Assembly: GCA_964057225.1 (NCBI GenBank)
Contig: OZ059896.1
Coordinates: 14,942,001 to 15,006,000 of the forward strand
Origin: Auanema rhodensis
Lineage: Eukaryota; Animalia; Nematoda
Length of the DNA: 64,000 nucleotides
Direction: 5' to 3'
The position numbers were made by a program, and so were the translations under genes. Under the pieces are notes generated by a model. That model worked only from the letters and a program-made list of their open reading frames with translations, did not search any database and was not told the origin of the DNA. Shown here one piece after another: positions 3,068-51,192 of this stretch. Within the stretch, counting starts at the first letter, position 1. Each line of letters starts with the position of its first letter.

Positions 3068-3481
3068 CGTTCTATTTAGATCCTCGGTTCCAAGTTGAGA
3101 TATCCAAACAGACTATGAGACGATGAGTATGATTTTAAATATAAGTGTGTAATGTAAGGTGAAATAAGAAACAAAAGATGAAATGTATAAAGGTTTATTG
3201 TTCGCATTATAATATAATTATACAAAGATTAAAGCTAGAGTTAAGAAAGAGAATATAAAGAAGATAAAGAGAAAGTAAGATAATGAGATAATGAGATGCC
3301 TGAGTCTTGAGGACTCAGGTTTATATATCCATACAACTCCTACTCAGTTTACACAAATTGTTACAAAGTTTATAAAAAGTGCATCTAGAATATTCTCAGA
3401 ATTGCTTAAAAACTATCTGCATTAGTTTAATAATAGCAGCTGCCATGGTCAGCTGCTTTCCTTTGAGATATGTATGTAACA
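3068..3481 (-). repeat. 3' LTR of element 1
   Basis: Direct repeat of 13033-13449; the only difference I saw is a 3-bp indel (AAT). Sense ends TGTTAC...GAACG. TATATAAA at 3320-3327 and AATAAA at 3194-3199 on the minus strand. Confidence 0.97.
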
Positions 3482-3490
3482 TGCCCCAAC
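3482..3490 (-). other. Weak polypurine-tract position (…GGGGCA) before the 3' LTR
   Basis: Abuts the 3' LTR; same GGGCA ending as the PPT of element 2. Confidence 0.45.
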
Positions 3491-3661
3491 GGATACAAGT
3501 CAGCTGACCTCAGCTGTTATATGCAAATAATAAGAGAGAAAAATAAAAAAAATAAAATGGCATGAGATAAAGCAAATTTTTTTTTTTCAACAAACTATTG
3601 ATAAAGAGAAAAATTTTAAGAGATAGAATTTTATAAATGATTTAAACCTTTCCTCTCTTCT

Positions 3662-4014
3662 TTAATCCGCCAGTTGGTCAATTTCCTGGATCATTTCCGT
3701 CATTGATGCTAGTCCAAGCAGCTCCATTGTTCTGATGGTTTGGCTAACTGCTTTTGCCTTACTTTTTGATGCGGACGTGTTGGTAGTCCTTTTTGTCAGT
3801 AGTTTTTCGATTACTACTGATAGGTCTTGCCCTATCTCTATCCACGATGCTTCTTCTTCGGTTCCGCTATTTCCTACAGCTTGTTGTGTCATCTGTGTTG
3901 TCCACGTCGGCATTGCTTTGTAGATGTCAGCTGTGGTCTGCGTTCTGGCGGGTTGTCCCAGCATTATGTGTCGGATTCTGTTCTCTTTCTGGCTGAGAGA
4001 ACATCCTTCTTGAA
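3662..4014 (-). pseudogene. C-terminal remnant of a longer element ORF downstream of the integrase deletion
   Basis: The 100-aa ORF 3662-3964 stays open upstream (VQEGCSLSQKENRIRHI) through the point where integrase homology stops. No recognisable domain. Confidence 0.55.
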
Positions 4015-5718
4015 CATTGAAAGAACATATCTGTTTTCTTGTTCTGTCCTAGGTAATGGTCCGAGTATATCCATGTGTACTCTTTGCCATGGTTTTGTTG
4101 ATGTTGGAAAATTTTTCATTGGTTCCACCGTTGCTTCGTGAGGGTTGTTCTTTCTTTTCGCACAAGCAAGACATCTGTTGATGTAGTTTGTAATGTCTTC
4201 TTGCATTCCAGTCCATGTAAATCGTCTTGATATTGAGTCCATTGTTTTGTTTATTCCTAGATGAGCTCCGAGTGTCGGATCTTCATGAAATTTCTTCATA
4301 ATTGGATTAATTATGTGCTCTTCTCGTGGTAAAATTGTTCGTGGTACTTGTAGGCTTCTTTTTGGTTTTGAGTATAGTACATCGTTGTACACAATATATC
4401 TGTCCGTCAGTTGTCGTCCAGCTGTATTATTCTTTATTTTATCCATAGTTTCTTTTATCCAATTTGATTGATTCTGCACTGATCGAATATCTGCTATCGT
4501 GAAGGTGTTTATCTGATGAATAGTATCTTCCGTCGTTTTTCTTTCGTTTTTCTTCTTTGCTGGTGGTTTTGCTTCGTTGATTTCATCTTCAAAATATCGT
4601 GATAATGCGTCACATACACTGTTTAATTTTCCTGGTCTGTAGATAATTTCAATATCGTATTCTTGTAAAACAATTTGAAATTTTGCTAAACGACCTATTA
4701 AATCCTTTCTAGTCATTAAACTAGTGAGTGGTCTATGGTCCGTGATAATTTTGGTTGCTGTTCCTAGTATGTAGGTGCGAAATTGTTTGACGGCGAATGT
4801 AAGAGCTAATGCTTCTACTTCTATTGGTGGATAATTCCTTTCAGCTTTGTTGAGTTTCCGACTAGCAAAAGCTATTGGATGTAATGGTTCTTGATCGTCT
4901 TTCGCTTGAAGTAGTACAGCGCCAACTGCTATCATACTTCCATCACTTTCAATAACATATGGTCGCTTCGGGATTGGTGCTTGTAACACAGGTGCTTGAG
5001 TCAATGTTTTCTTCAAAGTATTAAAAGCAATTTCTTCTTCTTCTGTCCATTTGAACGGAGTGTCTTTCCGAGTGAGGTTGTAGAGTGGTGTTGCTATTCC
5101 TGCAGCATTCTTTATGAACCTTCTGAAGTAGTTTACTACTCCCATGAAAGCTCTTACTCCTGTCGTTGATTTTGGTTGGGGATAATCTTGTATTGCCTTA
5201 ATTTTATGTGGGTCCGGTTTAATTCCTTCTTGTCCAACTATGTATCCTAGAAATTTTACTTCCTTTCTTGCGAATGCGCATTTCTTCAGTTTTATTTTGA
5301 ATCCTATTTGAGTTACTGCTTCCAAAACTTCTTCAATATCTTTTAAATGTGCTGTCGTAGATTCAGAGATTAACAGTAAATCATCTAGATATACGAATAG
5401 CTTGCATTTAACCATTGATTGCAGGTATCGTACTGCGTTTTGAAAAGTATGGGGTGATCCACATAATCCCATCGGCATTCGACAATATTGATAAGTTCCA
5501 CTTGTTGTTGTGAAAGCTGTAAGATGACGATCTTCTTTCTTAAGAGGTATTTGGAAAAATCCAGATACTAAATCAAAGTTGCTGAAGATCCTTGCTCCAG
5601 CGGCCAAATCTAGGATGTCCTGTATGTTTGATATGACATATACTTGTTTCTGAGTGATTGCATTCAGAGCTCGAAAGTCCGTTACAAATCTATAAGTTTT
5701 GTCTTTCTTCTTCACCAA
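3964..5718 (-). CDS. pol: Pol: reverse transcriptase, RNase H and truncated integrase
   Basis: RT motifs FVTDFRALN, DLVSGFFQI, MPMGL, YLDD (5380-5391), FLGY. RNase H motifs ESDGS, YPPIEVEALA, TDHRPL, DALSR. Integrase HHCC and VHMDILGPLP are present, then homology ends near 4014, so the second D and the E are missing. Confidence 0.96.
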   Translation of the reverse strand: MVKKKDKTYRFVTDFRALNAITQKQVYVISNIQDILDLAAGARIFSNFDLVSGFFQIPLKKEDRHLTAFTTTSGTYQYCRMPMGLCGSPHTFQNAVRYLQSMVKCKLFVYLDDLLLISESTTAHLKDIEEVLEAVTQIGFKIKLKKCAFARKEVKFLGYIVGQEGIKPDPHKIKAIQDYPQPKSTTGVRAFMGVVNYFRRFIKNAAGIATPLYNLTRKDTPFKWTEEEEIAFNTLKKTLTQAPVLQAPIPKRPYVIESDGSMIAVGAVLLQAKDDQEPLHPIAFASRKLNKAERNYPPIEVEALALTFAVKQFRTYILGTATKIITDHRPLTSLMTRKDLIGRLAKFQIVLQEYDIEIIYRPGKLNSVCDALSRYFEDEINEAKPPAKKKNERKTTEDTIHQINTFTIADIRSVQNQSNWIKETMDKIKNNTAGRQLTDRYIVYNDVLYSKPKRSLQVPRTILPREEHIINPIMKKFHEDPTLGAHLGINKTMDSISRRFTWTGMQEDITNYINRCLACAKRKNNPHEATVEPMKNFPTSTKPWQRVHMDILGPLPRTEQENRYVLSMFKKDVLSARKRTESDT

Positions 5719-8700
5719 AATTACTGGAGTTTGTCATTGAGTTTGATGGTTCAATGATTCTTTGTTGTAGCATTTCTTCTATTTGTTTCTCCACTTCTTC
5801 TTGTTGGGAGAGTGGTATACGATAAGTAATTTTGAATGATGGTGTTTTTCCTGGCATGATTGGAATGGAGTGTTCAATTGGTCCTAGGAAGAGTCCGATA
5901 TTTCTATCTTCGTTGAGAAACGCTTGTTTATGTAGTAAAATTATTTCTTTCAGTTGCTGTTGTTCGATTTGCGAGAAGCAGGCTTCTGAAAGGTCAAGCT
6001 CATTGATGAAATTGTCTGGGAAATATGGCAGTTGTTCTTCCCATCGAGCTTCCGGAGGTATGTATTGTCCTTCGTATTTTTCTTGGTTGTCCTTTGGTAT
6101 CGCTTCTGCTATCCCTATTTCTTGATTCATTTGAATTTCGAGTGGCTGTTTGCATATATTCGTCGCGTAAATTTGTACTCCGTATCCAGTTGGCGTAAAT
6201 ATAGTAGGCGTGAAAGAGAGTTTGTTGCCTGGTTTCTTACAATCGAGAAACGCCTGTTCATAGCTTTCTGGATCGTGTACTTCTAGCGTGAGCGTTCTTG
6301 TTTCTCCTGGTCTTAGCGTTTTGTTTTCTAAGCTAACCACATATGCTTTCGTGGTCTGGTGTTCCCACGGAGATGTTTCTCGTGCTAGTGGAACATGTGT
6401 TGTGCCGATAACAATTGTTTTATCCAGCGGTCGAAGTGAGGTGTAAATTCCTTGTTGATGTAATGCTTCCATGAAGTCTATTCCAAGTAACACTGGTGCT
6501 GGACAGTAGTTATCTTCTGCTACATAAAATTTGTGTTCTGTTTCTGTTGTTCCTATTGTTATGAGGATCCTTGTGTATCCCATAAATGAGAATTTAGATT
6601 TATTCGCGACTATCGCTGTTGTTTGTTTTAGTACCATCGTTGCAGCGGGCAGTTGTTTGAAGGTGGATTCTCGCATGTATGATGCTGATGCTCCCGTGTC
6701 CCATAGTGCCTTAAAGATGTGATTGTGGATTGAAATTGGGACAAACGGTAATTGTGATCCTCCTATGTAGTTTATGTTTTCTTTCTTCATGCTTGTAGGG
6801 AAATAAGCTTCATAAATGTGTTCAGGAATTGGTGCTGAAGGATCATACAATGTGAGTTGACAGCTGTTGTGATGGTTGTCGACGTATGGAGCGGACGGAG
6901 AAGGATGAGATGTTTCTGTTCTTGTGTTCTCAGTTGATAGTGGTTGTAAGTATTCTGCTTCCCATTTGACATTGTTGATGGGTATCCTTGAACTACATGC
7001 GTATATTTTTATTATCCAGGTGGCGAGTGTGATTATGCCAATTGTTATGATGATTGATCCAATGATAGCAAGTACGCGTAGTGTCCAGGTTTGAATCTTT
7101 TCCCATATTGGTGACAGAAAGTCAAACATTTTCCAAGTTATAGCTTCTTTTGTATGTTCGTAGCTGAGTAGTAAGCTGCTGGCTGCTCCTGCTGTTAGGG
7201 TAACAGGGTTCATGTTAGGAATTAATCTTTGTTTGATTACAGGTTTTATTCTTCCTGGTAAAGTAGCCTGTAGCGTTGCTAAGCTGGATCCATATGATAT
7301 TGCTAGTGCCATAGGAAACGTTGATTCTGTTAGATTGTTGAAAATGTTGCTTCCATTAAACTTGATATGTTCTAGGTTGATTGATCCTAACTCGTCGATG
7401 TATGCTGGTGATGTTACATTTATTGATTGGTTATTATTAGTCCATTGATCGTTTTCTTTCCAGGGATCCTTGATTGTGAATCCGCATGGTATGGCATGTG
7501 CCATCGGTGTGAGGTCTCTTGTACCTGGTAGGATGAACAGTTGGCCGTGATGTTCCGTTTCGACTGGGGTTTCCAGAAAACACGTGCTGTTGACTTTGTG
7601 ATCACGGTATGTTTTTGTAATTTGAATTGGTGTGCATGGCATTACATAAATTAGTTTATCATTTATGAATCTTGCAGATATATCCTGTCGTCGTAGCATT
7701 GTACGCATCCCTATAGTAGGATTTATTTGAAGAATAGCCCACCAGGTAAGTAGTTGTTTATTTTGTACGTGGCAGATGTTGTTTCTGTTTGTTGTGAACG
7801 TACGTATGATATCATCTTCCAGATTGGTAGTGGCATATTGTAGATGAGATTGCGTTTCTTGTTGATGAAGATGTTCATTCCATTTTTGGACGATATCGTT
7901 CTTAGCTTTAAGGTAGTCTACGTGGGCTTTCTTACCAATATGTGATGATATTTCTTCAGGTGTGCTGCGAGTGGTAGTGATAGATCTTTTTGTAGTTCTT
8001 GGAGGCGGTGACTTGGTGAGTGATTCTTTCCTATTGTATTCCTGGCTTGAGGTGATCGTGATTGGGTTTGTAGTAATATTGAATGTAGATTGGGGGGTGG
8101 AGAATGATTGTTTTGGTCGATGAGTGGTGAATATAGTTGTGGTTGTTGTAGGTGTTGTGGTTGTTGTTGATCTGGGTCTAGCAGTAGTAGAAGTAGTAGT
8201 AGTAGTAGTGGTAGTAGTAGTAGTAGTTGATGAAGACGTGGGTATTGTTGGTTTGGGTCTAGTTGTTGTGGATATATGTGTTTTGGGTGTGATTGTCGAA
8301 GTGATGACGTTCCTTATGGTTGTAGGCTTAGGGGTCGTGGTAGTGGTTGTAGTAGTAGTTTGTAGGGGGGTCGAAGTGCTTCTAATTGTGGTTGCAAAAG
8401 GTCGTGTTCCGGGAGTACTGATAAGGGGTAGATAATGATTATAAAATTTTTCACTATCCTCTTGTGTAATGCTATAATTTGTAGGATTTCTTTTCCGGAA
8501 GCCGTAGAATATCTCGTCGCCATCGAAGATAACTGTGTAGTTTGGCAGTTGTAATGGTGGTAAGTTTAGTTCTTTTTCATATTTGATCCATTTCTTCATT
8601 TCTGCTTCGTATTCTTCTTTTGAATGTAGCTTCTTCGGATTATTTATTGCGTTCAGGATAATTTTTGCTTGTGCTAGTTGTTCGTACAGTTCTAAATCGT

Positions 8701-11700
8701 TTCGTGTCTTGGTGAGTCTTGGTTTTCTTGGTGGCATAAGTTGATATAAGTATTCTTCTAAAGATGGTGTTGTTTCTCCTGTAGCTAATGTAGTAGGTAT
8801 TTCCGCAAGTGAGTAAGCAATTTCTTTCGCGATTTCATAGTAGTCTCCTGTTTTGGTTGGTAGTATCTTCTTAAAATCCTTAATTGTGATCCGTTTGCTA
8901 AGTTTTTGCGTAAGTTCCTTATACGATAGATTATCGATCGCGATTTTTGTTGCTTCTCTTATTTCTGCTTCTCCTAGGGCGTGTAGAATGGCTATGTTGA
9001 CGTCTTCATATTTGTGCCATATAAGACGATTTTTGATAACATCAAAATTTATACCTAGGTATTTGAAGATTGCGATATACTTAGGTAACATATTTGTTAT
9101 GTTATTGAGATTGTAATGTATGTCAAGTCTTTTTCGTTGAATATAGGTTGTATATAGTAGAATCGTTCCAGTTTTGCTGGCTGAATATCTTAGCGAGGGG
9201 TATTGATGAACTGTCAAGAATCCTTTAGGGTATTCCGTGATTGCGTGTCTTCTTGATCGTCCTAAGCTTGAGGTTGAGTTGAAGGAGATTAGAGTTCCAC
9301 TATTTGTAGTAAATATATCTTTTTGTAAGCATGAGGAGGCTTCTTTTTCCGGTGTTTTATTGTTTAGAATAAAAGCACTTTGAATTCCGGGAATCAATAT
9401 GGTGTCTTCTGATATAAAAACTTCGTGAGAGCCTAATGAAGTGTACGAGCAACTATGTTTTTCTGATGGTGGGGTCCATATGATGAGAGCGTTGTTGGTT
9501 AGGCATTGTCCTTTGTCACTGGTGCATCCGTTGTCGTTTATGAATATATCTGAGAGTACTGTATTGTCTTGTAGGCTGGTCATGTGTCCTCGTTCAGCTA
9601 TGAATCTGGTACGTTGTTCGCATTCCTGTTTCCATATACCATTAGTAATAGTTGTATGTGGGAATGGAGTTCCATAGAGTCCTGGTGCTTCTCTTTGAAG
9701 GTTGTTACCGTTGAATATTCTTTCTTTAATAGCTGACGAACATTCTTGCAGTGTTGTTGGTGAAACTTTTGCTAGTGAGACATTAGTTTCTCTGATGAAG
9801 AAAACGTCGTGAATGCAGAGTTGGTAAGTTTCAATTGCACATTTCCATGCTTCCCATTCTTTTGGTTGTAGGTTTTGGATGAACAATTCTGCTGTAGTCT
9901 TCTGGATATGGTTATTAGTTGGTGCGATGAATCGGCAAGCTGTTGGAGATGGCGGCTCGACATATATTCCTCCTCTGTTTCCTGTGCATAACTGGTACGT
10001 TGTTTCTGCACTGCATGTGTTTATAATGAGTGCGATAATTGTGATAAAGAGGGGTAGAAATGGTGTTGATTTTCTTTTGTTGTTCGGTACTTCGTTTTCC
10101 GTGACGTTGTTGACTTGAAAACGTACTCCTGGGCTCTGTGTGCGTTCTCTATACCGTTCCGGTCCATTGGAGGTGCTGCGCGGGCGACTTCTATAATTGT
10201 TGTATTGGCTTCGATTGTATTGAGAGGGGTATTGTTCGTGATTATTTGATTGTCGCCGGTTGTTGTGTCCGCTATAGTTTTGGTCGCGGTTTCGATAGTA
10301 TGGTCTTTCTTGGCTTCTGTTCCGTGATCTGTCGAAGTAGTTTTGTCTTGATCCCTTATTTTGAGAGAATCGTGAGTTATGGTTCCTGTATTGGTGTTGA
10401 TGAGGCCGATATTGGTTGTTGTATCTGTCCGGATATCGGTTGTGTGGTTTGCCATTGCCATTATACATCGGTTTGGTTCCTTTGAAATCCTTAGATTCGT
10501 TTCTCTGGTATTGATTGTTGTCCTTTGAGTCTCGAATGTTGAGGTTGTTGAACGACTTCTCTATATTGTTGACAAACGATGTTGGTCTATTTTGTATAAA
10601 GAGTTCTTCTCGTAAGGCCATTTCGTAAGCTTCCTCAAAGTTTGGTGGGTCTAGACGGCTAACGTGTTCGCTTATTTCGGGTCTTAGTCCCCAGGTGAAG
10701 GTGGATCGGAGCATGTTAAGCTCACTTTCGTTGTTCATGTCCATAGCCGAGTAGGCTTCGTTAGAACATCTTGTTGCAAAGCTTTGTACCGATTCCGTTG
10801 GTAACTGTTTCAAGCCATGTAGGCGGTGCATTGCTCGTTCTCTCTGTTTTTTCGGTGTGATCATTTCTGAGAGTCGCTTCTTGACATGGTCCCATCCAAG
10901 TCGCTTATCTTCGGTTGTGAGTTTTCTGTACGCTTCTCTTGCTCGATCATCTTCTAGCAATAATTGTATGCTTTGAAGACGTTCGGGCATAGTTGTTCTT
11001 GTAGCGTTGAAGTGTTCATCTAGGTATAGTAGATAGCGGTTGAATGGTGTTTTTCCATCGTAGCGTGGAGCTTTTATATCGCGTATGGCGGACGGAATCG
11101 CTGCTGGTTGAGGGATGATTGTAGGTGTTGGAACAGGTGCCCTTCCCGAGGTTTGCGTAAGTGGTGCGCCTTCGTCCATTGGGTCCATTCTTGGGTTAAT
11201 TCTCTTGTTTTCTGCAACAAAAGTATTTGCTTGATTAGTTTGCGATGGAAGAGACGGAGATAGAGAATGCCCAGATGTAGAATGATCAATGGATGAAGGT
11301 GAGTTTCGTAGAGGTGGGGATGAGCTTACTGCGGGTGTGGTTGAAGAAAGTGCGGGCGTAGGTGATTTTTGTGTGGTTGGTGTATTGCTTCTTCTAGGGG
11401 TGGCTATTAAAGGATTGATTGGGTTGATTGTATTTGGTATGGTGTTGGTTGGGGGGTTTTGAGGGTTCCCTTTGCTTGCTATGTTTTTAGGAATAGGTTT
11501 AATGTTTGGGATAATTTTCTTTTCTAAGGTGTTTCTTTCGACTATGTCTGTTTTTTGTTTCTTCGTTTTTTCATGTGATTTGGGATTGGTGAATTGTTTT
11601 TGAATGCCGCGATGTCTTGGGGTATGTATTACCATTGACTTTGTTTTAATGCTTAACTTCGCTTGTTTTGCAGAGGGGGGAGAATATGTTGCGGGCGGTT

Positions 11701-11818
11701 GTCTTTTTCTTCTTATAATATTTGAAGTGGCAGCAGGGTCCAGCGGAGGTTTTGGACCAGTATTGGGCAGCATCGTTGGTATCCTGTAAGGAAATTTGTT
11801 ATATCCAACGTGTGCCAA
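5690..11818 (-). CDS. Gag-Env-protease-RT(N-terminus) polyprotein, 2042 aa (first ATG at 11773)
   Basis: Retrotransposon Gag core (PRYDG…LKQLPTESVQSF…FTWGLRPEI, ~10590-11070). Hydrophobic signal 10007-10060, Cys-rich ectodomain, TM 7010-7075. Protease LWDTGAS (6692-6700) and LLGIDF. RT N-terminus IEHSI…YRIP…IIEPSNS. No stop codon between these domains. Confidence 0.95.
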   Translation of the reverse strand: MAHVGYNKFPYRIPTMLPNTGPKPPLDPAATSNIIRRKRQPPATYSPPSAKQAKLSIKTKSMVIHTPRHRGIQKQFTNPKSHEKTKKQKTDIVERNTLEKKIIPNIKPIPKNIASKGNPQNPPTNTIPNTINPINPLIATPRRSNTPTTQKSPTPALSSTTPAVSSSPPLRNSPSSIDHSTSGHSLSPSLPSQTNQANTFVAENKRINPRMDPMDEGAPLTQTSGRAPVPTPTIIPQPAAIPSAIRDIKAPRYDGKTPFNRYLLYLDEHFNATRTTMPERLQSIQLLLEDDRAREAYRKLTTEDKRLGWDHVKKRLSEMITPKKQRERAMHRLHGLKQLPTESVQSFATRCSNEAYSAMDMNNESELNMLRSTFTWGLRPEISEHVSRLDPPNFEEAYEMALREELFIQNRPTSFVNNIEKSFNNLNIRDSKDNNQYQRNESKDFKGTKPMYNGNGKPHNRYPDRYNNQYRPHQHQYRNHNSRFSQNKGSRQNYFDRSRNRSQERPYYRNRDQNYSGHNNRRQSNNHEQYPSQYNRSQYNNYRSRPRSTSNGPERYRERTQSPGVRFQVNNVTENEVPNNKRKSTPFLPLFITIIALIINTCSAETTYQLCTGNRGGIYVEPPSPTACRFIAPTNNHIQKTTAELFIQNLQPKEWEAWKCAIETYQLCIHDVFFIRETNVSLAKVSPTTLQECSSAIKERIFNGNNLQREAPGLYGTPFPHTTITNGIWKQECEQRTRFIAERGHMTSLQDNTVLSDIFINDNGCTSDKGQCLTNNALIIWTPPSEKHSCSYTSLGSHEVFISEDTILIPGIQSAFILNNKTPEKEASSCLQKDIFTTNSGTLISFNSTSSLGRSRRHAITEYPKGFLTVHQYPSLRYSASKTGTILLYTTYIQRKRLDIHYNLNNITNMLPKYIAIFKYLGINFDVIKNRLIWHKYEDVNIAILHALGEAEIREATKIAIDNLSYKELTQKLSKRITIKDFKKILPTKTGDYYEIAKEIAYSLAEIPTTLATGETTPSLEEYLYQLMPPRKPRLTKTRNDLELYEQLAQAKIILNAINNPKKLHSKEEYEAEMKKWIKYEKELNLPPLQLPNYTVIFDGDEIFYGFRKRNPTNYSITQEDSEKFYNHYLPLISTPGTRPFATTIRSTSTPLQTTTTTTTTTPKPTTIRNVITSTITPKTHISTTTRPKPTIPTSSSTTTTTTTTTTTTSTTARPRSTTTTTPTTTTTIFTTHRPKQSFSTPQSTFNITTNPITITSSQEYNRKESLTKSPPPRTTKRSITTTRSTPEEISSHIGKKAHVDYLKAKNDIVQKWNEHLHQQETQSHLQYATTNLEDDIIRTFTTNRNNICHVQNKQLLTWWAILQINPTIGMRTMLRRQDISARFINDKLIYVMPCTPIQITKTYRDHKVNSTCFLETPVETEHHGQLFILPGTRDLTPMAHAIPCGFTIKDPWKENDQWTNNNQSINVTSPAYIDELGSINLEHIKFNGSNIFNNLTESTFPMALAISYGSSLATLQATLPGRIKPVIKQRLIPNMNPVTLTAGAASSLLLSYEHTKEAITWKMFDFLSPIWEKIQTWTLRVLAIIGSIIITIGIITLATWIIKIYACSSRIPINNVKWEAEYLQPLSTENTRTETSHPSPSAPYVDNHHNSCQLTLYDPSAPIPEHIYEAYFPTSMKKENINYIGGSQLPFVPISIHNHIFKALWDTGASASYMRESTFKQLPAATMVLKQTTAIVANKSKFSFMGYTRILITIGTTETEHKFYVAEDNYCPAPVLLGIDFMEALHQQGIYTSLRPLDKTIVIGTTHVPLARETSPWEHQTTKAYVVSLENKTLRPGETRTLTLEVHDPESYEQAFLDCKKPGNKLSFTPTIFTPTGYGVQIYATNICKQPLEIQMNQEIGIAEAIPKDNQEKYEGQYIPPEARWEEQLPYFPDNFINELDLSEACFSQIEQQQLKEIILLHKQAFLNEDRNIGLFLGPIEHSIPIMPGKTPSFKITYRIPLSQQEEVEKQIEEMLQQRIIEPSNSMTNSSNFGEEERQNL
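7010..10060 (-). other. env: Envelope glycoprotein region, herpesvirus gB-like class III fusogen
   Basis: Signal peptide, furin site RSRR (9248-9259), several N-x-S/T sequons and a TM anchor. The block LQY…ICHVQNKQLLTWW…INP…ISARFIND…PCTP…CFLETPV follows the gB domain III/IV pattern LQF…WC..QN…W…NP…SAR..GD…C.P…CY..P. Recognised by eye, not searched. Confidence 0.8.
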
Positions 11819-13014
11819 AATAATTTTATATATAGAAAAACGTAAAGAATAATGTTGGGTTTGTGTGCGCGATTCTTATGAAGGTAGCTAGTCTTGCAAG
11901 TAATCTCTTTACCAATATAGCTCGTCCGGGTCTAACACAGGTTTGAAACTAGTGTGCCTTTTCAAAGGGACAAGTTCTATATTGTGAAAAAGGCATGAAA
12001 TGAAAGTTAATAGTTCGCCAGTCTTTTGGGACAAGGATACAAAATAGAATTTTCGCAATCATTTCATTTTCCCAGACCTCATTAACCTATCTGAGTCACA
12101 GGTATGTCAGCTGCCTTCTGCATCCTGCTCCCTGACTCTATGATGGCGAGACCACTCTTATTATTTATATCAATGTGGGGCAGATTTCAATTCAAAAATT
12201 TTCTAATTATTTCATGGGGCGTACGTCTTATCCTGAGTGTCGGCCTCCGCTCGAGTCTCTTGAGTGTCTGGCATTATTCTTAACGAGGGGGGGATGGTTT
12301 TTGCGTATAAGTTAAAACTTATTGATTAATTTAATTATTTTTCGTTTTTTTTTTCAGGTGCTAAGGTAATCGGAATTTGGATACGCTGCGCCTAATAAAT
12401 ATTTTTACTGTCGTGTTTAACACGGGATTTCTTGCTTATGAAATTACGGGGGGGGGAAGGGGTGGGTTTATGAGAATACAGTGTAGTAGTATAAGAATAA
12501 TAGTTTTATAAACGAACATAAAGAAAATAATGAAAATATGGTATGATAGGATGATTAAATAGTATGATAAGATGAAGATTGAGGTAATATGATAAGATGA
12601 TTAAGATTGAGAGGTATAGAAGCAATATTCCTTTTTATTTCTTAATTCTAAATTAATTTTATAAAGAACTTAACTATTTTTGTTCAAAAAATGTGAAAAT
12701 AAACTTATAATTCTTAGAAAAGTTAATTATTGAATTTGAATAATTTTCGTATATAGGATTTTGGATAGAGAGAATGATAAATGATATAAGTACTCTTATG
12801 AATAATTGAAAATGATTTATGAGAATATAATGAATGGAAAACTGAGTTTTTGTAAAGAGTTTTTGGATATAATTTTTAATAGAAAAGTTTTAGAGTTTTT
12901 AAGAAAATATTATAAGCTAACTTTAAGAGAGAGATAAGATTTTTAATTTAATTGAATAAGAGATGTAGACGGTAGCGCTTGAGTTCCTTTACGAGATCCT
13001 GTCCAAAAGGAAGG

Positions 13015-13032
13015 ATCTCGGCGGAACCTCCA
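13015..13032 (-). promoter_or_regulatory. Primer-binding site, tRNA-Gln
   Basis: TGGAGGTTCCGCCGAGAT directly after the 5' LTR; complementary to the tRNA-Gln 3' end …ATCTCGGTGGAACCTCCA with one G:U pair. Confidence 0.85.
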
Positions 13033-13449
13033 CGTTCTATTTAGATCCTCAATGGTTCCAAGTTGAGATATCCAAACAGACTATGAGACGATGAGTATGA
13101 TTTTAAATATAAGTGTGTAATGTAAGGTGAAATAAGAAACAAAAGATGAAATGTATAAAGGTTTATTGTTCGCATTATAATATAATTATACAAAGATTAA
13201 AGCTAGAGTTAAGAAAGAGAATATAAAGAAGATAAAGAGAAAGTAAGATAATGAGATAATGAGATGCCTGAGTCTTGAGGACTCAGGTTTATATATCCAT
13301 ACAACTCCTACTCAGTTTACACAAATTGTTACAAAGTTTATAAAAAGTGCATCTAGAATATTCTCAGAATTGCTTAAAAACTATCTGCATTAGTTTAATA
13401 ATAGCAGCTGCCATGGTCAGCTGCTTTCCTTTGAGATATGTATGTAACA
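13033..13449 (-). repeat. 5' LTR of element 1
   Basis: 417 bp; direct repeat of 3068-3481; followed by the PBS in the sense direction. Confidence 0.97.
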
Positions 13450-38679: not shown

Positions 38680-39024
38680 CGTTCCATTCGGACTCCACAT
38701 ATATGTAGCTGAAGGGTTAGAGCCAGACGACCAGAGGACCGAGGAATGGCTCCGCCTTCCCTCGTTCCCTTGGTCGGGAGTTCGCCTCTTAGCAAGCTCA
38801 TGGACGGCTTGTAGTTTAGTCTTTATACTTATATTTATCTTATTGTATTGTATCTTTATCTTTGTATATTATTGTTGTAGTTTCATGCCAATAAATCTTT
38901 CTCTCTTTTATCTTATGATTGACCTTATGCTCTTTATTCCTTACCGCTACACCAAGGAATACTATGCGCGTCATAGTATAAACTACAATGGTTTATATTA
39001 TCGACGCAGGAGCATAACGGAACG
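38680..39024 (+). repeat. 5' LTR of element 2
   Basis: Ends CGTTCC…GGAACG (6-bp terminal inverted repeat); AATAAA near 38890; no difference seen from 41796-42140. Confidence 0.96.
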
Positions 39025-39037
39025 TGGAGGTTCCACC
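39025..39037 (+). promoter_or_regulatory. Primer-binding site, tRNA-Gln
   Basis: TGGAGGTTCCACC abutting the LTR. Confidence 0.85.
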
Positions 39038-40681
39038 TCGAACTCATCTTTTGAAAAAAAAAAATTTTTTTATTGTAGAAGTCCATTTTTGCATTCTAAA
39101 TTATAAATTCCTCCACTTGAAACAACAAAATGAAGGCGCCAATTTGTTTTAAGGTACAGATACAAGGGATCTCGCTTAAATGCGAGATAGGACCAATAAA
39201 ATTTTTGCCCGCCGTCCTCAATTTAAAACCGTCTGAATGTCCACCCTTTTCTATATCGTATCTTGTACCGCTTCTCATGCCATTTTGAGGACGTTTGGAT
39301 TGAAATAGAGGACAATTTCGCCAAACGAGAAATTATAGTTGTTCACATTTTTTTTTGGGCATAGAGAAGTTTGATTACTGGAACAAAAATTCATAAGACG
39401 CGCGCAATTGATTATAGTTTGTATATTTTGTGGTCAGGACTAGAATTTTGAAAAATTGTTATATTCAGACGTAAAAGATCATTTTACATATTATTTTGCG
39501 GGAAACCAAAATAGGTTACATAAATTGAATATAAAAACAGACCACACTAGTCCGAAAAAGCCTGGTAAATCTGCAATAAGACTTCTCAGCTCTTAATTGA
39601 CAGTCAGGTCAAGTTGGCGGAAGCATAACTGCTACGGATTTTATCCCCGTAGATTATGTCACCTTCCTCAAATCATTTCGTTGTTTCAACTCATAAGATA
39701 CCCCTTATCTCCTACAGTAATCCTAAGTTAATGGGAAATGTTTAAAAATAGACGTATTTTTCTCATTTTCAAAAAGAAATTCGCTTAGGAAAACGCACTT
39801 TTGCTTATTTTGATCAAGAAAAAGGACAGCCTTTTCAATAACTCTCCTCAAACCTCATTAGCATGCACAATGTCGAAAACATTTTGAGCAAAACATGCTA
39901 TTTAAGGGAAAAGGAATGAGGAAAAGATTGAAAACATAAGTCCATTTTCTTGACGAAAACAGAGCAAAGTGCACAAAAAAAATAAAAACACAGAGTACAA
40001 ACTTTATTCAGTCAATACCCATATCCAAACCAAATAATGAGTCATCATAAACAATATAGATTTTAAACAATAATCTATATAATAAATAATAATAAAAATG
40101 ACTCTTTTCCTGGTACCAGGCCCAAGGACGTGCGGTTAATAAACCGGCCCTACCATTATATACATGAGCGCATAGATCAACTAAGCACCTTCGACCAACA
40201 AGCTCCACTTCGGGAGCTACATCTACGAAGGTGGCAAAGTTTATATGTCCCTGCCCCAAATAATACATTTGAAGATCTTCGATAAACTAAAGTAATCAAA
40301 TAATCAAACATAAAATGGAGATACACAAACCATTAAAATTATATCAGGGTTTGGCCTATAAGCCAAAACTCCTTCTCCATCGTATTCAACGATGGATTCG
40401 TATAATTTCCACAGGACTTAAGTCATGCCAGTGGGATTATAACGTTGGAAATCCATTTTTTTTCTTTCTTTCTTTTCTTTTCTTTTGTTTCTAACCTTAA
40501 AATAAATGTCCAAAGGCCGCAAAAGTACAAAGGGGACGACATGAATAAAGTTTTTTTTAAAGATTCTAGAGCAGTAAGAAAACAAAATTAGAGGAAAGTG
40601 CAAGAGCGGATAAAAATAGTTTTTGAGAAGAGATAAACATCATTAACTATAATAAGCTTACGGTAGATAGGCGGAGTCAGA

Positions 40682-41155
40682 TTGGTGGCCACGATTTGGA
40701 AAACTCCCTCTCATTTACCCTCCGCATCGCCCAGCGAAGCACGACTATCCTATTGCTCCCGAATCTCTCTCTCTCCCAACACACATCTAAAAGAATCTAA
40801 CGCACCTTGCGTCAACATCCCACACGTAGCTCACCATTCTCGGTTTTTCCAAACCAAAAGTCCTACAAAGGTGGCCAAAAGATTCTCATCGGCTTTCCGA
40901 GCCCTTTACCCGTCCGATATCAACAGTGACGCTACTGTCGCAAGTCGTACCGGAAGCCGTACCCGACTTCTCAGTGTTCAAATAGAAAAACCGCACCAAC
41001 CAGACGAGAAGCCGAAGCCGCAAGTCGACAAATTCTATACTCCCCGAGAAGGCACATATTCACCTTCTGACGACACCGACGAAGATCCGGACTTCATCAT
41101 AGCCGACGACAGAAAAAAATTTTATATACATTCTTTTCTTTTCTGTAAATTGTAA
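40682..41155 (+). CDS. Hypothetical 157-aa ORF inside the non-autonomous element
   Basis: Longest internal ORF, lying in a more GC-rich island; S/P-rich with an acidic tail. TTG start only, no known motif. Confidence 0.25.
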   Translation: MVATIWKTPSHLPSASPSEARLSYCSRISLSPNTHLKESNAPCVNIPHVAHHSRFFQTKSPTKVAKRFSSAFRALYPSDINSDATVASRTGSRTRLLSVQIEKPHQPDEKPKPQVDKFYTPREGTYSPSDDTDEDPDFIIADDRKKFYIHSFLFCKL

Positions 41156-41784
41156 AATGAAAGTAACGGTGAATTAGAAAATTTTTGATGAGAGATTAAG
41201 TGAGTAAACAACTAAAAACAAGGAATAAGCAAAAATATAATAAAAATAAATGACTACCGTAATCCTATACGACCGATAGAGATAATATTTTGCGCTAAAC
41301 TGAGCTCCATATGTATCTCCAAGAAGAGACGAACATTGGCAGGCGCCTAAGCCACACCCCATCTGAGTGGTAGCCTCCATTAGTACTCAAGGATTCATTC
41401 AGAGAGACATATGGAGACGAGTAAATTATTAAATAAAATTATCCCCATCATCATTAGGATACGAGTAACCATGTAACGGAAATGTTTAATAATTCCTTAT
41501 TGTCTCACATAAATCACACATTCATGAAACAAAGAAATTTTTTTTTATTACAGTACTACAATGACTAAATTTATTTTCTAATCCTCCGTTACAAAATAAC
41601 ATAAAACCTATTATTGTATTCAAATTCTATCTTAATACCATAAAGAAACCTATTAAAATTATTTATATATCTTTCTACATGTAGATTTTAAAACTTTTAA
41701 TTTTATTTGTAAACTCGTAGACTCTAAAACTCAGCTACATATACACTAAAAACACTTTATATCGCGCGGACGCGAAAAATCTTT

Positions 41785-41795
41785 GAAAAAGGGCA
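41785..41795 (+). other. Polypurine tract GAAAAAGGGCA
   Basis: Immediately precedes the 3' LTR. Confidence 0.75.
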
Positions 41796-42140
41796 CGTTC
41801 CATTCGGACTCCACATATATGTAGCTGAAGGGTTAGAGCCAGACGACCAGAGGACCGAGGAATGGCTCCGCCTTCCCTCGTTCCCTTGGTCGGGAGTTCG
41901 CCTCTTAGCAAGCTCATGGACGGCTTGTAGTTTAGTCTTTATACTTATATTTATCTTATTGTATTGTATCTTTATCTTTGTATATTATTGTTGTAGTTTC
42001 ATGCCAATAAATCTTTCTCTCTTTTATCTTATGATTGACCTTATGCTCTTTATTCCTTACCGCTACACCAAGGAATACTATGCGCGTCATAGTATAAACT
42101 ACAATGGTTTATATTATCGACGCAGGAGCATAACGGAACG
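41796..42140 (+). repeat. 3' LTR of element 2
   Basis: Direct repeat of 38680-39024. Confidence 0.96.
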
Positions 42141-47336: not shown

Positions 47337-48085
47337 CACTAGATTATTCACTAGACGAAAAACGACAGATTTATGTCAATATTTCAAAATAGTTAAGAGC
47401 AACTCAAATTTCAGCAAATCATTGTTCAGACTGAAAGAACATGCATATTCTTTTCGTCAACACGACTTTTTGATTGTGGCTCCGAGATACCAGTCTAACG
47501 CGGCACTGTCTAGTTTCGAATATCGTAGAATCAAAGATTGGAACCAGCTTCACTCCATTTTGATTAATATTGAAAAAGTTTCTAATTTTCGTAGTTGTAT
47601 TATGAACCATAATTCTTCTTCATTGTGACTTTGTTTTTAACTTGTTTTTATTTTTCTTTTTTTCTTTTTTCTTCAATGAGATTGTTTTGTTAATCGTTTT
47701 GTGTTAAGCTGTTGCTCCTTCTTCTTTTGTTCTCTCAGTTTTCCTAGGCATCTGACCTATAGACATGAGTCGTACGGTCTGAGCACGGTAATCACTTATT
47801 TGATAGAACGGGTTTGACCTTACTCTTTGTGTCACCGTACCTAGACAAACCAAGAAGTGATTGGCTTCGAATTGTAATTTTCAAGCTGAAAACTCAAGAT
47901 CATAACTCTTATAATTGAGCACATTCTTAACTAAAAACCAATTCAAAGCTAACTCTGGAGTTAAAAGAAAAAAAAAAGCAGCTACCGAAAGGTTAATTTT
48001 AATGTTCTTATCTTAATTTAACCTCACACCTTCCTTGTAACCTGTGGTCAGTTGTGTTGAATAAACTTAAACTTAAACTTAAACT
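47337..48085 (+). mobile_element. 5'-truncated CR1-like non-LTR retrotransposon, copy 1
   Basis: Open frame 47338-47628 LFTRRKTTDLCQYFKIV…FRQH…FEYRRIKDWNQL fits the CR1-clade ORF2 C-terminus (L..RR...DL...YKI / F..R....WN.LP). Followed by a 3' UTR, AATAAA and a (TAAACT)4 tail; AACT at both junctions. Confidence 0.85.
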
Positions 48086-50443: not shown

Positions 50444-51192
50444 CACTAGATTATTCACTAGACGAAAAACGACAGATTTATGTCAATATTTCAAAATAGT
50501 TAAGAGCAACTCAAATTTCAGCAAATCATTGTTCAGACTGAAAGAACATGCATATTCTTTTCGTCAACACGACTTTTTGATTGTGGCTCCGAGATACCAG
50601 TCTAACGCGGCACTGTCTAGTTTCGAATATCGTAGAATCAAAGATTGGAACCAGCTTCACTCCATTTTGATTAATATTGAAAAAGTTTCTAATTTTCGTA
50701 GTTGTATTATGAACCATAATTCTTCTTCATTGTGACTTTGTTTTTAACTTGTTTTTATTTTTCTTTTTTTCTTTTTTCTTCAATGAGATTGTTTTGTTAA
50801 TCGTTTTGTGTTAAGCTGTTGCTCCTTCTTCTTTTGTTCTCTCAGTTTTCCTAGGCATCTGACCTATAGACATGAGTCGTACGGTCTGAGCACGGTAATC
50901 ACTTATTTGATAGAACGGGTTTGACCTTACTCTTTGTGTCACCGTACCTAGACAAACCAAGAAGTGATTGGCTTCGAATTGCAATTTTCAAGCTGAAAAC
51001 TCAAGATCATAACTCTTATAATTGAGCACATTCTTAACTAAAAACCAATTCAAAGCTAACTCTGGAGTTAAAAGAAAAAAAAAAGCAGCTACCGAAAGGT
51101 TAATTTTAATGTTCTTATCTTAATTTAACCTCACACCTTCCTTGTAACCTGTGGTCAGTTGTGTTGAATAAACTTAAACTTAAACTTAAACT
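50444..51192 (+). mobile_element. 5'-truncated CR1-like non-LTR retrotransposon, copy 2
   Basis: Same 749 bp and same junctions as copy 1 (offset 3107); one substitution seen (47875 T vs 50982 C). Confidence 0.85.

Follow-up and report, generated by a model that had tools for sequence, protein, structure and literature searches.

A stretch of 64,000 nt from contig OZ059896.1 of Auanema rhodensis (the window, in whose coordinates all features are given) contains a long terminal repeat (LTR) retroelement that encodes an envelope glycoprotein (Env) between Gag and protease, within one stop-free frame. We consider it highly probable that the whole is a young, defective Ty3/gypsy copy, likely of nematode origin, of the known gag-env-pro-pol kind, and that its polyprotein would span the endoplasmic reticulum (ER) membrane twice and be processed to Gag, a class III fusogen resembling herpesvirus gB, and the Pol enzymes. 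The layout has already been described for nematodes (Chary and Hayashi, eLife 2026, PMC13524379) and the element is a further family of it, so that it adds a family rather than a principle.

A single frame from Gag to reverse transcriptase

The frame comprises 2061 codons, compared with a longest frame of 113 amino acids (aa) on average, and 200 aa at most, in 200 shuffles of the same bases. It encodes Gag, a signal-like helix, an Env ectodomain, a transmembrane (TM) helix, an aspartic protease (PR) and the start of reverse transcriptase (RT), and the Pfam matches above cut-off along it are, in order, PF03732, PF24664 and PF13975 (Table 1). The first of these identifies the capsid domain of Gag (27.1 bits, cut-off 24.1); a CCHC knuckle is absent from Gag, which has an N/R/Q/Y-rich region in its stead. 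Strongly hydrophobic segments are found at two places only, aa 605–623 and aa 1601–1623. The first would presumably be cleaved after A623, while the second closes an ectodomain of 977 residues (aa 624–1600) containing 14 cysteines, 14 N-glycosylation sequons and the furin-type motif RSRR at 873. A first-pass annotation of this DNA had read Gag, a hydrophobic signal, an ectodomain of ~980 aa, a TM helix, protease and the start of RT in one frame, and the frame recovered here has exactly this composition.

Relatives, copies and assembly support

Homologue searches gave one match among 7969 candidates, none among 4142 longer ones and two among 7997, and none of the 125 and 593 pattern matches from scans of viral and metagenome contigs was a relative. 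The sole relatives found among the candidates examined are two proteins of Auanema sp. JU1783 (NCBI), here P0001 and P0002. P0002 (32% identity) carries the Gag tail, signal, Env, TM helix, PR and RT start in one frame, and P0001 (46% identity) carries Env, TM helix, PR, RT, RNase H (RH) and integrase (IN) in one frame; jointly they span every junction in frame, and the window itself is continuous up to the RT start. All 14 ectodomain cysteines (14/14) are retained in P0002.

An alternative explanation is that the in-frame order is accidental to this copy, arising from misassembly or from a viral glycoprotein nested in an ordinary gag-pol element. The copy does lie in a hard-to-assemble tandem array and bears two lesions, and a low-depth DNA contig of run X6 joins across 6365–11403 (5 kb), skipping the region. 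We nevertheless regard this explanation as scarcely credible. The Gag-Env junction is bridged by single contigs of runs X1 (8525–10930) and X11 (8484–11765), and the Env-protease junction by single contigs of X1 (4967–8130) and X6 (6246–8130); the bridging contigs of each junction come from runs of two studies, one run of which may be the window's own source. Since contigs of four runs in all bridge one junction or the other, the order does not reflect misassembly. Contig depth is flat across env and pol in X1 and X6, without a drop at env, and none of the listed contig joints excises env alone. Because most of gag is missing across the X6 joint as well, it is read as a deletion derivative of the family. 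Finally, the two diverged relatives retain the order in frame, as the genuine arrangement put forward at first pass would have it.

Comparison among copies of the family is informative about selection. Differences between copies in the long frame and in the second frame, which carries the rest of Pol, fall at third codon positions in 32 of 39 cases (p 5e-10), these 39 being all in-frame places among those listed (40 of 66; 40 of 64) after non-coding places, places beyond the deletion and one place beside the frame break had been dropped. Within Env the figure is 17/19, which indicates purifying selection on Env in the recent copies.

Env as a class III fusogen homologue

Judged by sequence homology, which is established for its C-terminal half, the Env ectodomain is a homologue of the class III (gB-like) fusogens. 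The C-terminal half (aa 1310–1598) matches PF24664, the Monjiviricetes fusion glycoprotein, scoring 47.3 bits where the cut-off is 27; its match to the herpesvirus gB family PF00606 stays under the cut-off (E 2.7e-6). A three-sequence Env profile searched against PDB found gB chains (E 6.3e-5 and weaker); the corresponding single-sequence search reached gB at just E 0.9. Whole Env in the ESM Atlas produced leads (<0.9) to Monjiviricetes, rhabdovirus and gB clusters, and a fold search with the low-confidence Env model, itself uninformative, yielded no match at E ≤ 0.001. The proposal made at first pass that the middle region is a fusogen homologue is thus upheld by the Pfam match, the profile search and the ESM Atlas leads. 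Fusogen-core-like residues account for ~540 of the 977 ectodomain aa, and the inserted domain and Thr-rich stretch discussed below for ~435. The four cysteines of the C-terminal half are retained in both P0001 and P0002 (4/4), and the N-terminal half, at 33% identity to P0002, keeps 10/10 cysteines in that protein, which has RTKR at the place matching the furin-type site.

The same anatomy could belong to an intracellular retrotransposon whose Env does not serve cell-to-cell spread, being instead an anchor for assembly at the ER membrane or a means of germ-line re-entry from an internal compartment. Such a role could accommodate an ectodomain interrupted by an insert of ~470 aa; moreover, infectivity of any such element was not found in the text of PMC13524379, which states that the transmission mechanism is unknown outside Drosophila. 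We consider it unlikely, however, as a mere anchor would have no need of the features that are kept across 68% divergence, namely a full ectodomain, a furin site and all cysteines, nor of purifying selection.

Pol lineage and lesions of this copy

The Pol order PR-RT-RH-IN is present in the window in two frames and in P0001 in one. Among the 20 PDB matches listed for RT-RH-IN, the top match is Ty3 Gag-Pol (E 3.4e-85) and the top retroviral match is found at E 5.9e-33, in agreement with the Ty3/gypsy assignment of the first-pass annotation. P0001 continues unbroken across the position that matches the frame break at the window's RT start. At the site of the internal deletion (4010–4016), loose contig ends occur in runs X1, X2 and X6. 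Owing to the frame break and the loss of most of integrase, this copy is unable to make full Pol. The window copy is a young, defective member of its family; other copies differ from it at both lesions. A 128-codon frame (3662–4048) that adjoins the ~1.9-kb deletion has no Pfam match.

Proposed polyprotein processing and topology

In the mechanism that we propose, Gag would be synthesised in the cytosol; the helix at aa 605–623 would initiate translocation and be removed by signal peptidase, whereupon Env would fold and be glycosylated in the ER lumen. The helix at aa 1601–1623 would then stop transfer, so that PR-RT-RH-IN would remain in the cytosol, attached to the tail of Env. Gag and Pol would be released by the protease of the element itself, acting at [V/I]N-x-[V/I]-like sites that immediately precede the signal and immediately follow the TM helix, and furin would cut Env at RSRR. 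Drosophila gypsy is known to move from soma to germ line and, by analogy, unbroken copies of the present family may form enveloped particles that move between the cells of one animal, likely in the same direction. Env-skipping sense splicing was not seen among the joints listed (15 of 17 and 15 of 18), in contigs that drop rare forms; if no env-skipping RNA is made, Gag, Env and Pol would be produced in equal amounts.

Candidate protease sites were searched for with the motif [VI][NH]x[VILF], which we take to resemble gypsy protease sites. The motif is found at the protease start in 3/3 proteins, before the signal in 2/2, just after the TM helix in 2/3, at the end of the capsid domain in 2/2 and between RNase H and integrase in 2/2. 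As a lead, these positions are where cuts would be needed to release Gag and Pol from the membrane. The two-pass ER topology, which had also been suggested at first pass, fits both hydropathy and the candidate protease sites.

Several points weigh against this model or against the wider interpretation of the element. The protease-site motif is short, some of its matches fall within Env (1/8 in the window protein and 4/8 in P0002), and the positive-inside bias of the TM helix is weak, with three K+R before and two after it. The relatives are two in number and come from one species, Auanema sp. JU1783. The N-terminal half of Env has no Pfam family match, and the Env fold is unconfirmed by two structure predictions (mean pLDDT 34.6 and 31.7). 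The Ty3/gypsy assignment is a similarity ranking of PDB matches, not a tree with the published nematode elements. Lastly, contigs are unstranded and every intron seen is antisense, leaving sense-strand expression unsupported.

A large insert in Env

The distance from the furin site to the central helix is 471 aa in the window Env and 479 aa in P0002. The 289-aa domain that makes up the larger part of this region shares 34% identity with P0001 and 25% with P0002, and stretches like the Thr-rich one next to it occur in both proteins. A Pfam search with the domain found no match, and the ESM Atlas gave no usable match, a result that signifies neither absence nor novelty. Among the differences between copies listed for the insert coding region, 9/10 are at third codon positions. 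Our guess is that the insert would be an attachment domain on a mucin stalk.

Herpesvirus gB requires partners of the gH/gL type, and flavivirus proteases cut on the cytosolic side of membrane helices. Set against this background, the lineage may have built an attachment module, consisting of the 289-aa domain and the mucin stalk behind the furin site, into a class III fusogen derived from a polyprotein, such that one protein would both bind the receptor and fuse membranes without gH/gL-type partners, and its protease would cut on the cytosolic side of both membrane helices to release Gag and Pol, in the manner of flaviviruses. This combined proposal is speculative, and we hold it to be rather unlikely.

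Spliced antisense RNA

Four runs of one study, whose nature as RNA is inferred and none of which is recorded as RNA (hereafter RNA-like), contain 15 GT-AG introns antisense to env and protease; among the joints listed for three DNA runs there are none. In one listing, 13/14 introns were seen in at least two runs; of all 15 introns, 14 have acceptors ending in YAG and 12 are 41–78 nt long. An antisense protein gene was rejected, as none of the 12288 intron subsets yields an open reading frame (ORF) longer than 123 aa. Nor is there support for selection on antisense splice sites, with counts of 28 versus 22.0 ± 4.1 for donors and 10 versus 9.8 for acceptors when compared with synonymous shuffles. 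Most likely, some copy is transcribed in the antisense direction and the product is spliced at cryptic sites of the T-rich strand.

It could alternatively be posited that the locus has been adopted by the host or silences on its behalf, and that it makes use of the spliced antisense RNA instead of the polyprotein. That all 15 introns are antisense, most of them recurring between runs, and that no sense joint is listed would accord with such a role. We nonetheless find it very unlikely, firstly because the RNA offers neither a longer ORF nor an enrichment of splice motifs, secondly because the four runs stem from one study and the RNA may come from another copy, and thirdly because selection acts on sense codons.

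Element structure and insertion site

The element shows structural traits of the Metaviridae, namely LTRs, a primer-binding site and a short target duplication, with LTRs that end in CG instead of the usual CA. Aligned to each other, the two LTRs are identical at 414/414 bases and differ by one 3-nt gap; the target duplication is 4 nt, in a T run. The leader between the primer site and the first ATG (11774–13014, minus strand) is ~1.25 kb long and A/T-rich, and contigs of the RNA-like runs extend to about 12150–12400 in it.

Table 1 Features of the gag-env-pro-pol element (window coordinates; (-) minus strand, (+) plus strand)
Feature	Position	Strand	Remarks
LTR element	3068–13449	(-)	Largest of four stretches inserted in the tRNA-Tyr array
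5' LTR	13033–13449	(-)	417 nt, TG...CG ends
Primer-binding site, tRNA-Gln type	13015–13032	(-)	11/12 bases equal the Gln primer end of nematode elements (PMC13524379 supplement)
Stop-free frame, 2061 codons	5690–11875	(-)	First ATG 11773; Gag-signal-Env-TM-PR-RT start
Gag	10064–11773	(-)	P/S/T/K-rich N-terminus, capsid domain 10682–10951, N/R/Q/Y-rich region
Internal signal-like helix	10007–10063	(-)	aa 605–623, C-S-A end; counterpart hydrophobic segment in P0002
Env N-terminal half	9248–10006	(-)	10 Cys, furin-type RSRR at end; no Pfam match of its own
Inserted domain, 289 aa	8381–9247	(-)	Probably helical; no family match
Thr/Ser/Pro-rich mucin-like stretch	7946–8380	(-)	aa 1166–1310, 42% Thr
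Env C-terminal half	7076–7945	(-)	Class III fusogen core helix and crown region
Env transmembrane helix	7007–7075	(-)	aa 1601–1623
Aspartic protease	6458–6751	(-)	PF13975; DTG at 6700 = aa 1726
Frame break near RT start	5725–5745	(-)	Contigs of 7/7 runs differ in length here
RT (YLDD), RNase H, integrase zinc finger and start of core	3964–5733	(-)	Second frame
Internal deletion, ~1.9 kb, most of integrase	4010–4016		One X11 contig with 1940 extra letters here
3' LTR	3068–3481	(-)	414 nt
Span of 15 GT-AG introns	5547–9871	(+)	Antisense to env and protease; RNA-like runs only; no ORF (see text)

Most of the 64-kb window is taken up by intron-bearing tRNA-Tyr(GTA) genes repeated in tandem on the minus strand, which account for 171/173 ARAGORN calls made with the intron option; tRNA-Leu and tRNA-Ser calls obtained without this option were discarded as miscalls. 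Partial units lie in between, and spacings are 162, 219 and 293 nt. A second LTR element on the plus strand (38680–42140, 3461 nt) has 345-nt LTRs that are 100% identical, with CG...CG ends, a 4-nt target duplication and a tRNA-Gln-type primer site, and is without a match to P0001 or P0002 and without a long ORF of its own. It is likely non-autonomous and may share the machinery of the gag-env-pol element. The LTRs of both elements (3068 and 13033; 39024 and 42140) end in CG, not CA, immediately ahead of the primer site. Targeting of tRNA genes cannot be deduced from two insertions in a window that consists largely of a tRNA array, and integration of this kind is not claimed. A 740-nt insert is present in two copies (47342–48081 and 50449–51188) that are 99.9% identical, have a short TTAAAC repeat at the end and occupy an identical position in the array unit; these are perhaps a truncated non-LTR element that was duplicated along with the array.

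Comparison with known systems

Like class III fusogens such as herpesvirus gB and the Monjiviricetes glycoproteins (PF00606, PF24664), to which its C-terminal half is homologous, the window Env has a furin-type site ahead of the central helix and a single C-terminal TM helix; unlike them, it lies within a polyprotein, and its furin site and central helix are ~470 aa apart. The gypsy errantiviruses of Drosophila and the BEL/Pao elements Cer and Tas resemble the window element in being LTR elements with a captured fusogen; their env lies 3' of pol, and the gypsy Env is of the F type. The nematode elements termed NERV (non-canonical nematode endogenous retroviruses) by Sacco et al. 2022 in J Gen Virol reportedly have a continuous gag-env-pro-pol ORF with a metavirus-type RT and are said to encode a glycoprotein like those of negative-strand RNA viruses, with which the PF24664 match found here would agree; some members reportedly carry an accessory 3' ORF. 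The JU1783 proteins P0001 and P0002 share with the window the single-frame order, the cysteines, the insert and the Thr/Ser-rich stretch, and differ in belonging to separate families, as their 46% and 32% identity indicates, and in the unbroken passage from RT to integrase in P0001. As regards a chromadorean nematode host, which is a trait of the known GAG-ENV-POL elements, the observations are the Auanema origin of both relatives and the length of 41–78 nt of 12/15 introns.

The suggestion of the first-pass annotation that this might be an undescribed lineage does not stand, because GAG-ENV-POL elements of nematodes with a gB-type Env are already present in PMC13524379, following Sacco et al. 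2022 (J Gen Virol 103:1739, PMID 35550022), whom that paper credits with the first report of the flipped ENV/POL order in nematodes. Chary and Hayashi describe 36 such nematode elements, all with a gB-type Env, and report finding no nematode element in the usual order; according to their text, the nematode, bryozoan and flatworm elements have a gB-type Env only, in GAG-ENV-POL order, and the ectodomains have either a TM helix on both sides or a signal on one side and a TM helix on the other. A Gln primer is given for 8 of the 36 nematode entries, that is, for 8/16 of those with a primer call. The text of the paper does not state that the three parts share one frame, and it makes no mention of an extra Env domain, a mucin stretch, candidate protease sites cytosolic to the two membrane helices or an antisense RNA; its supplementary alignments may show the insert.

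The remaining interest of the window element lies in the processing model, the Env insert and the antisense RNA. For polyprotein processing and cell-to-cell spread, concrete things to test are offered by this family, which is young, exists in multiple copies, conserves its candidate cleavage sites and has a large unexplained insert in Env. The window element differs from the nematode 'errantiviruses' of PMC13524379 in that the copy is not intact and in that no Auanema is among the 36 entries, and it shares with them the gag-env-pol order, a gB-type Env preceded by a signal or first TM helix and followed by a TM helix, the LTRs and a tRNA-Gln-type primer.

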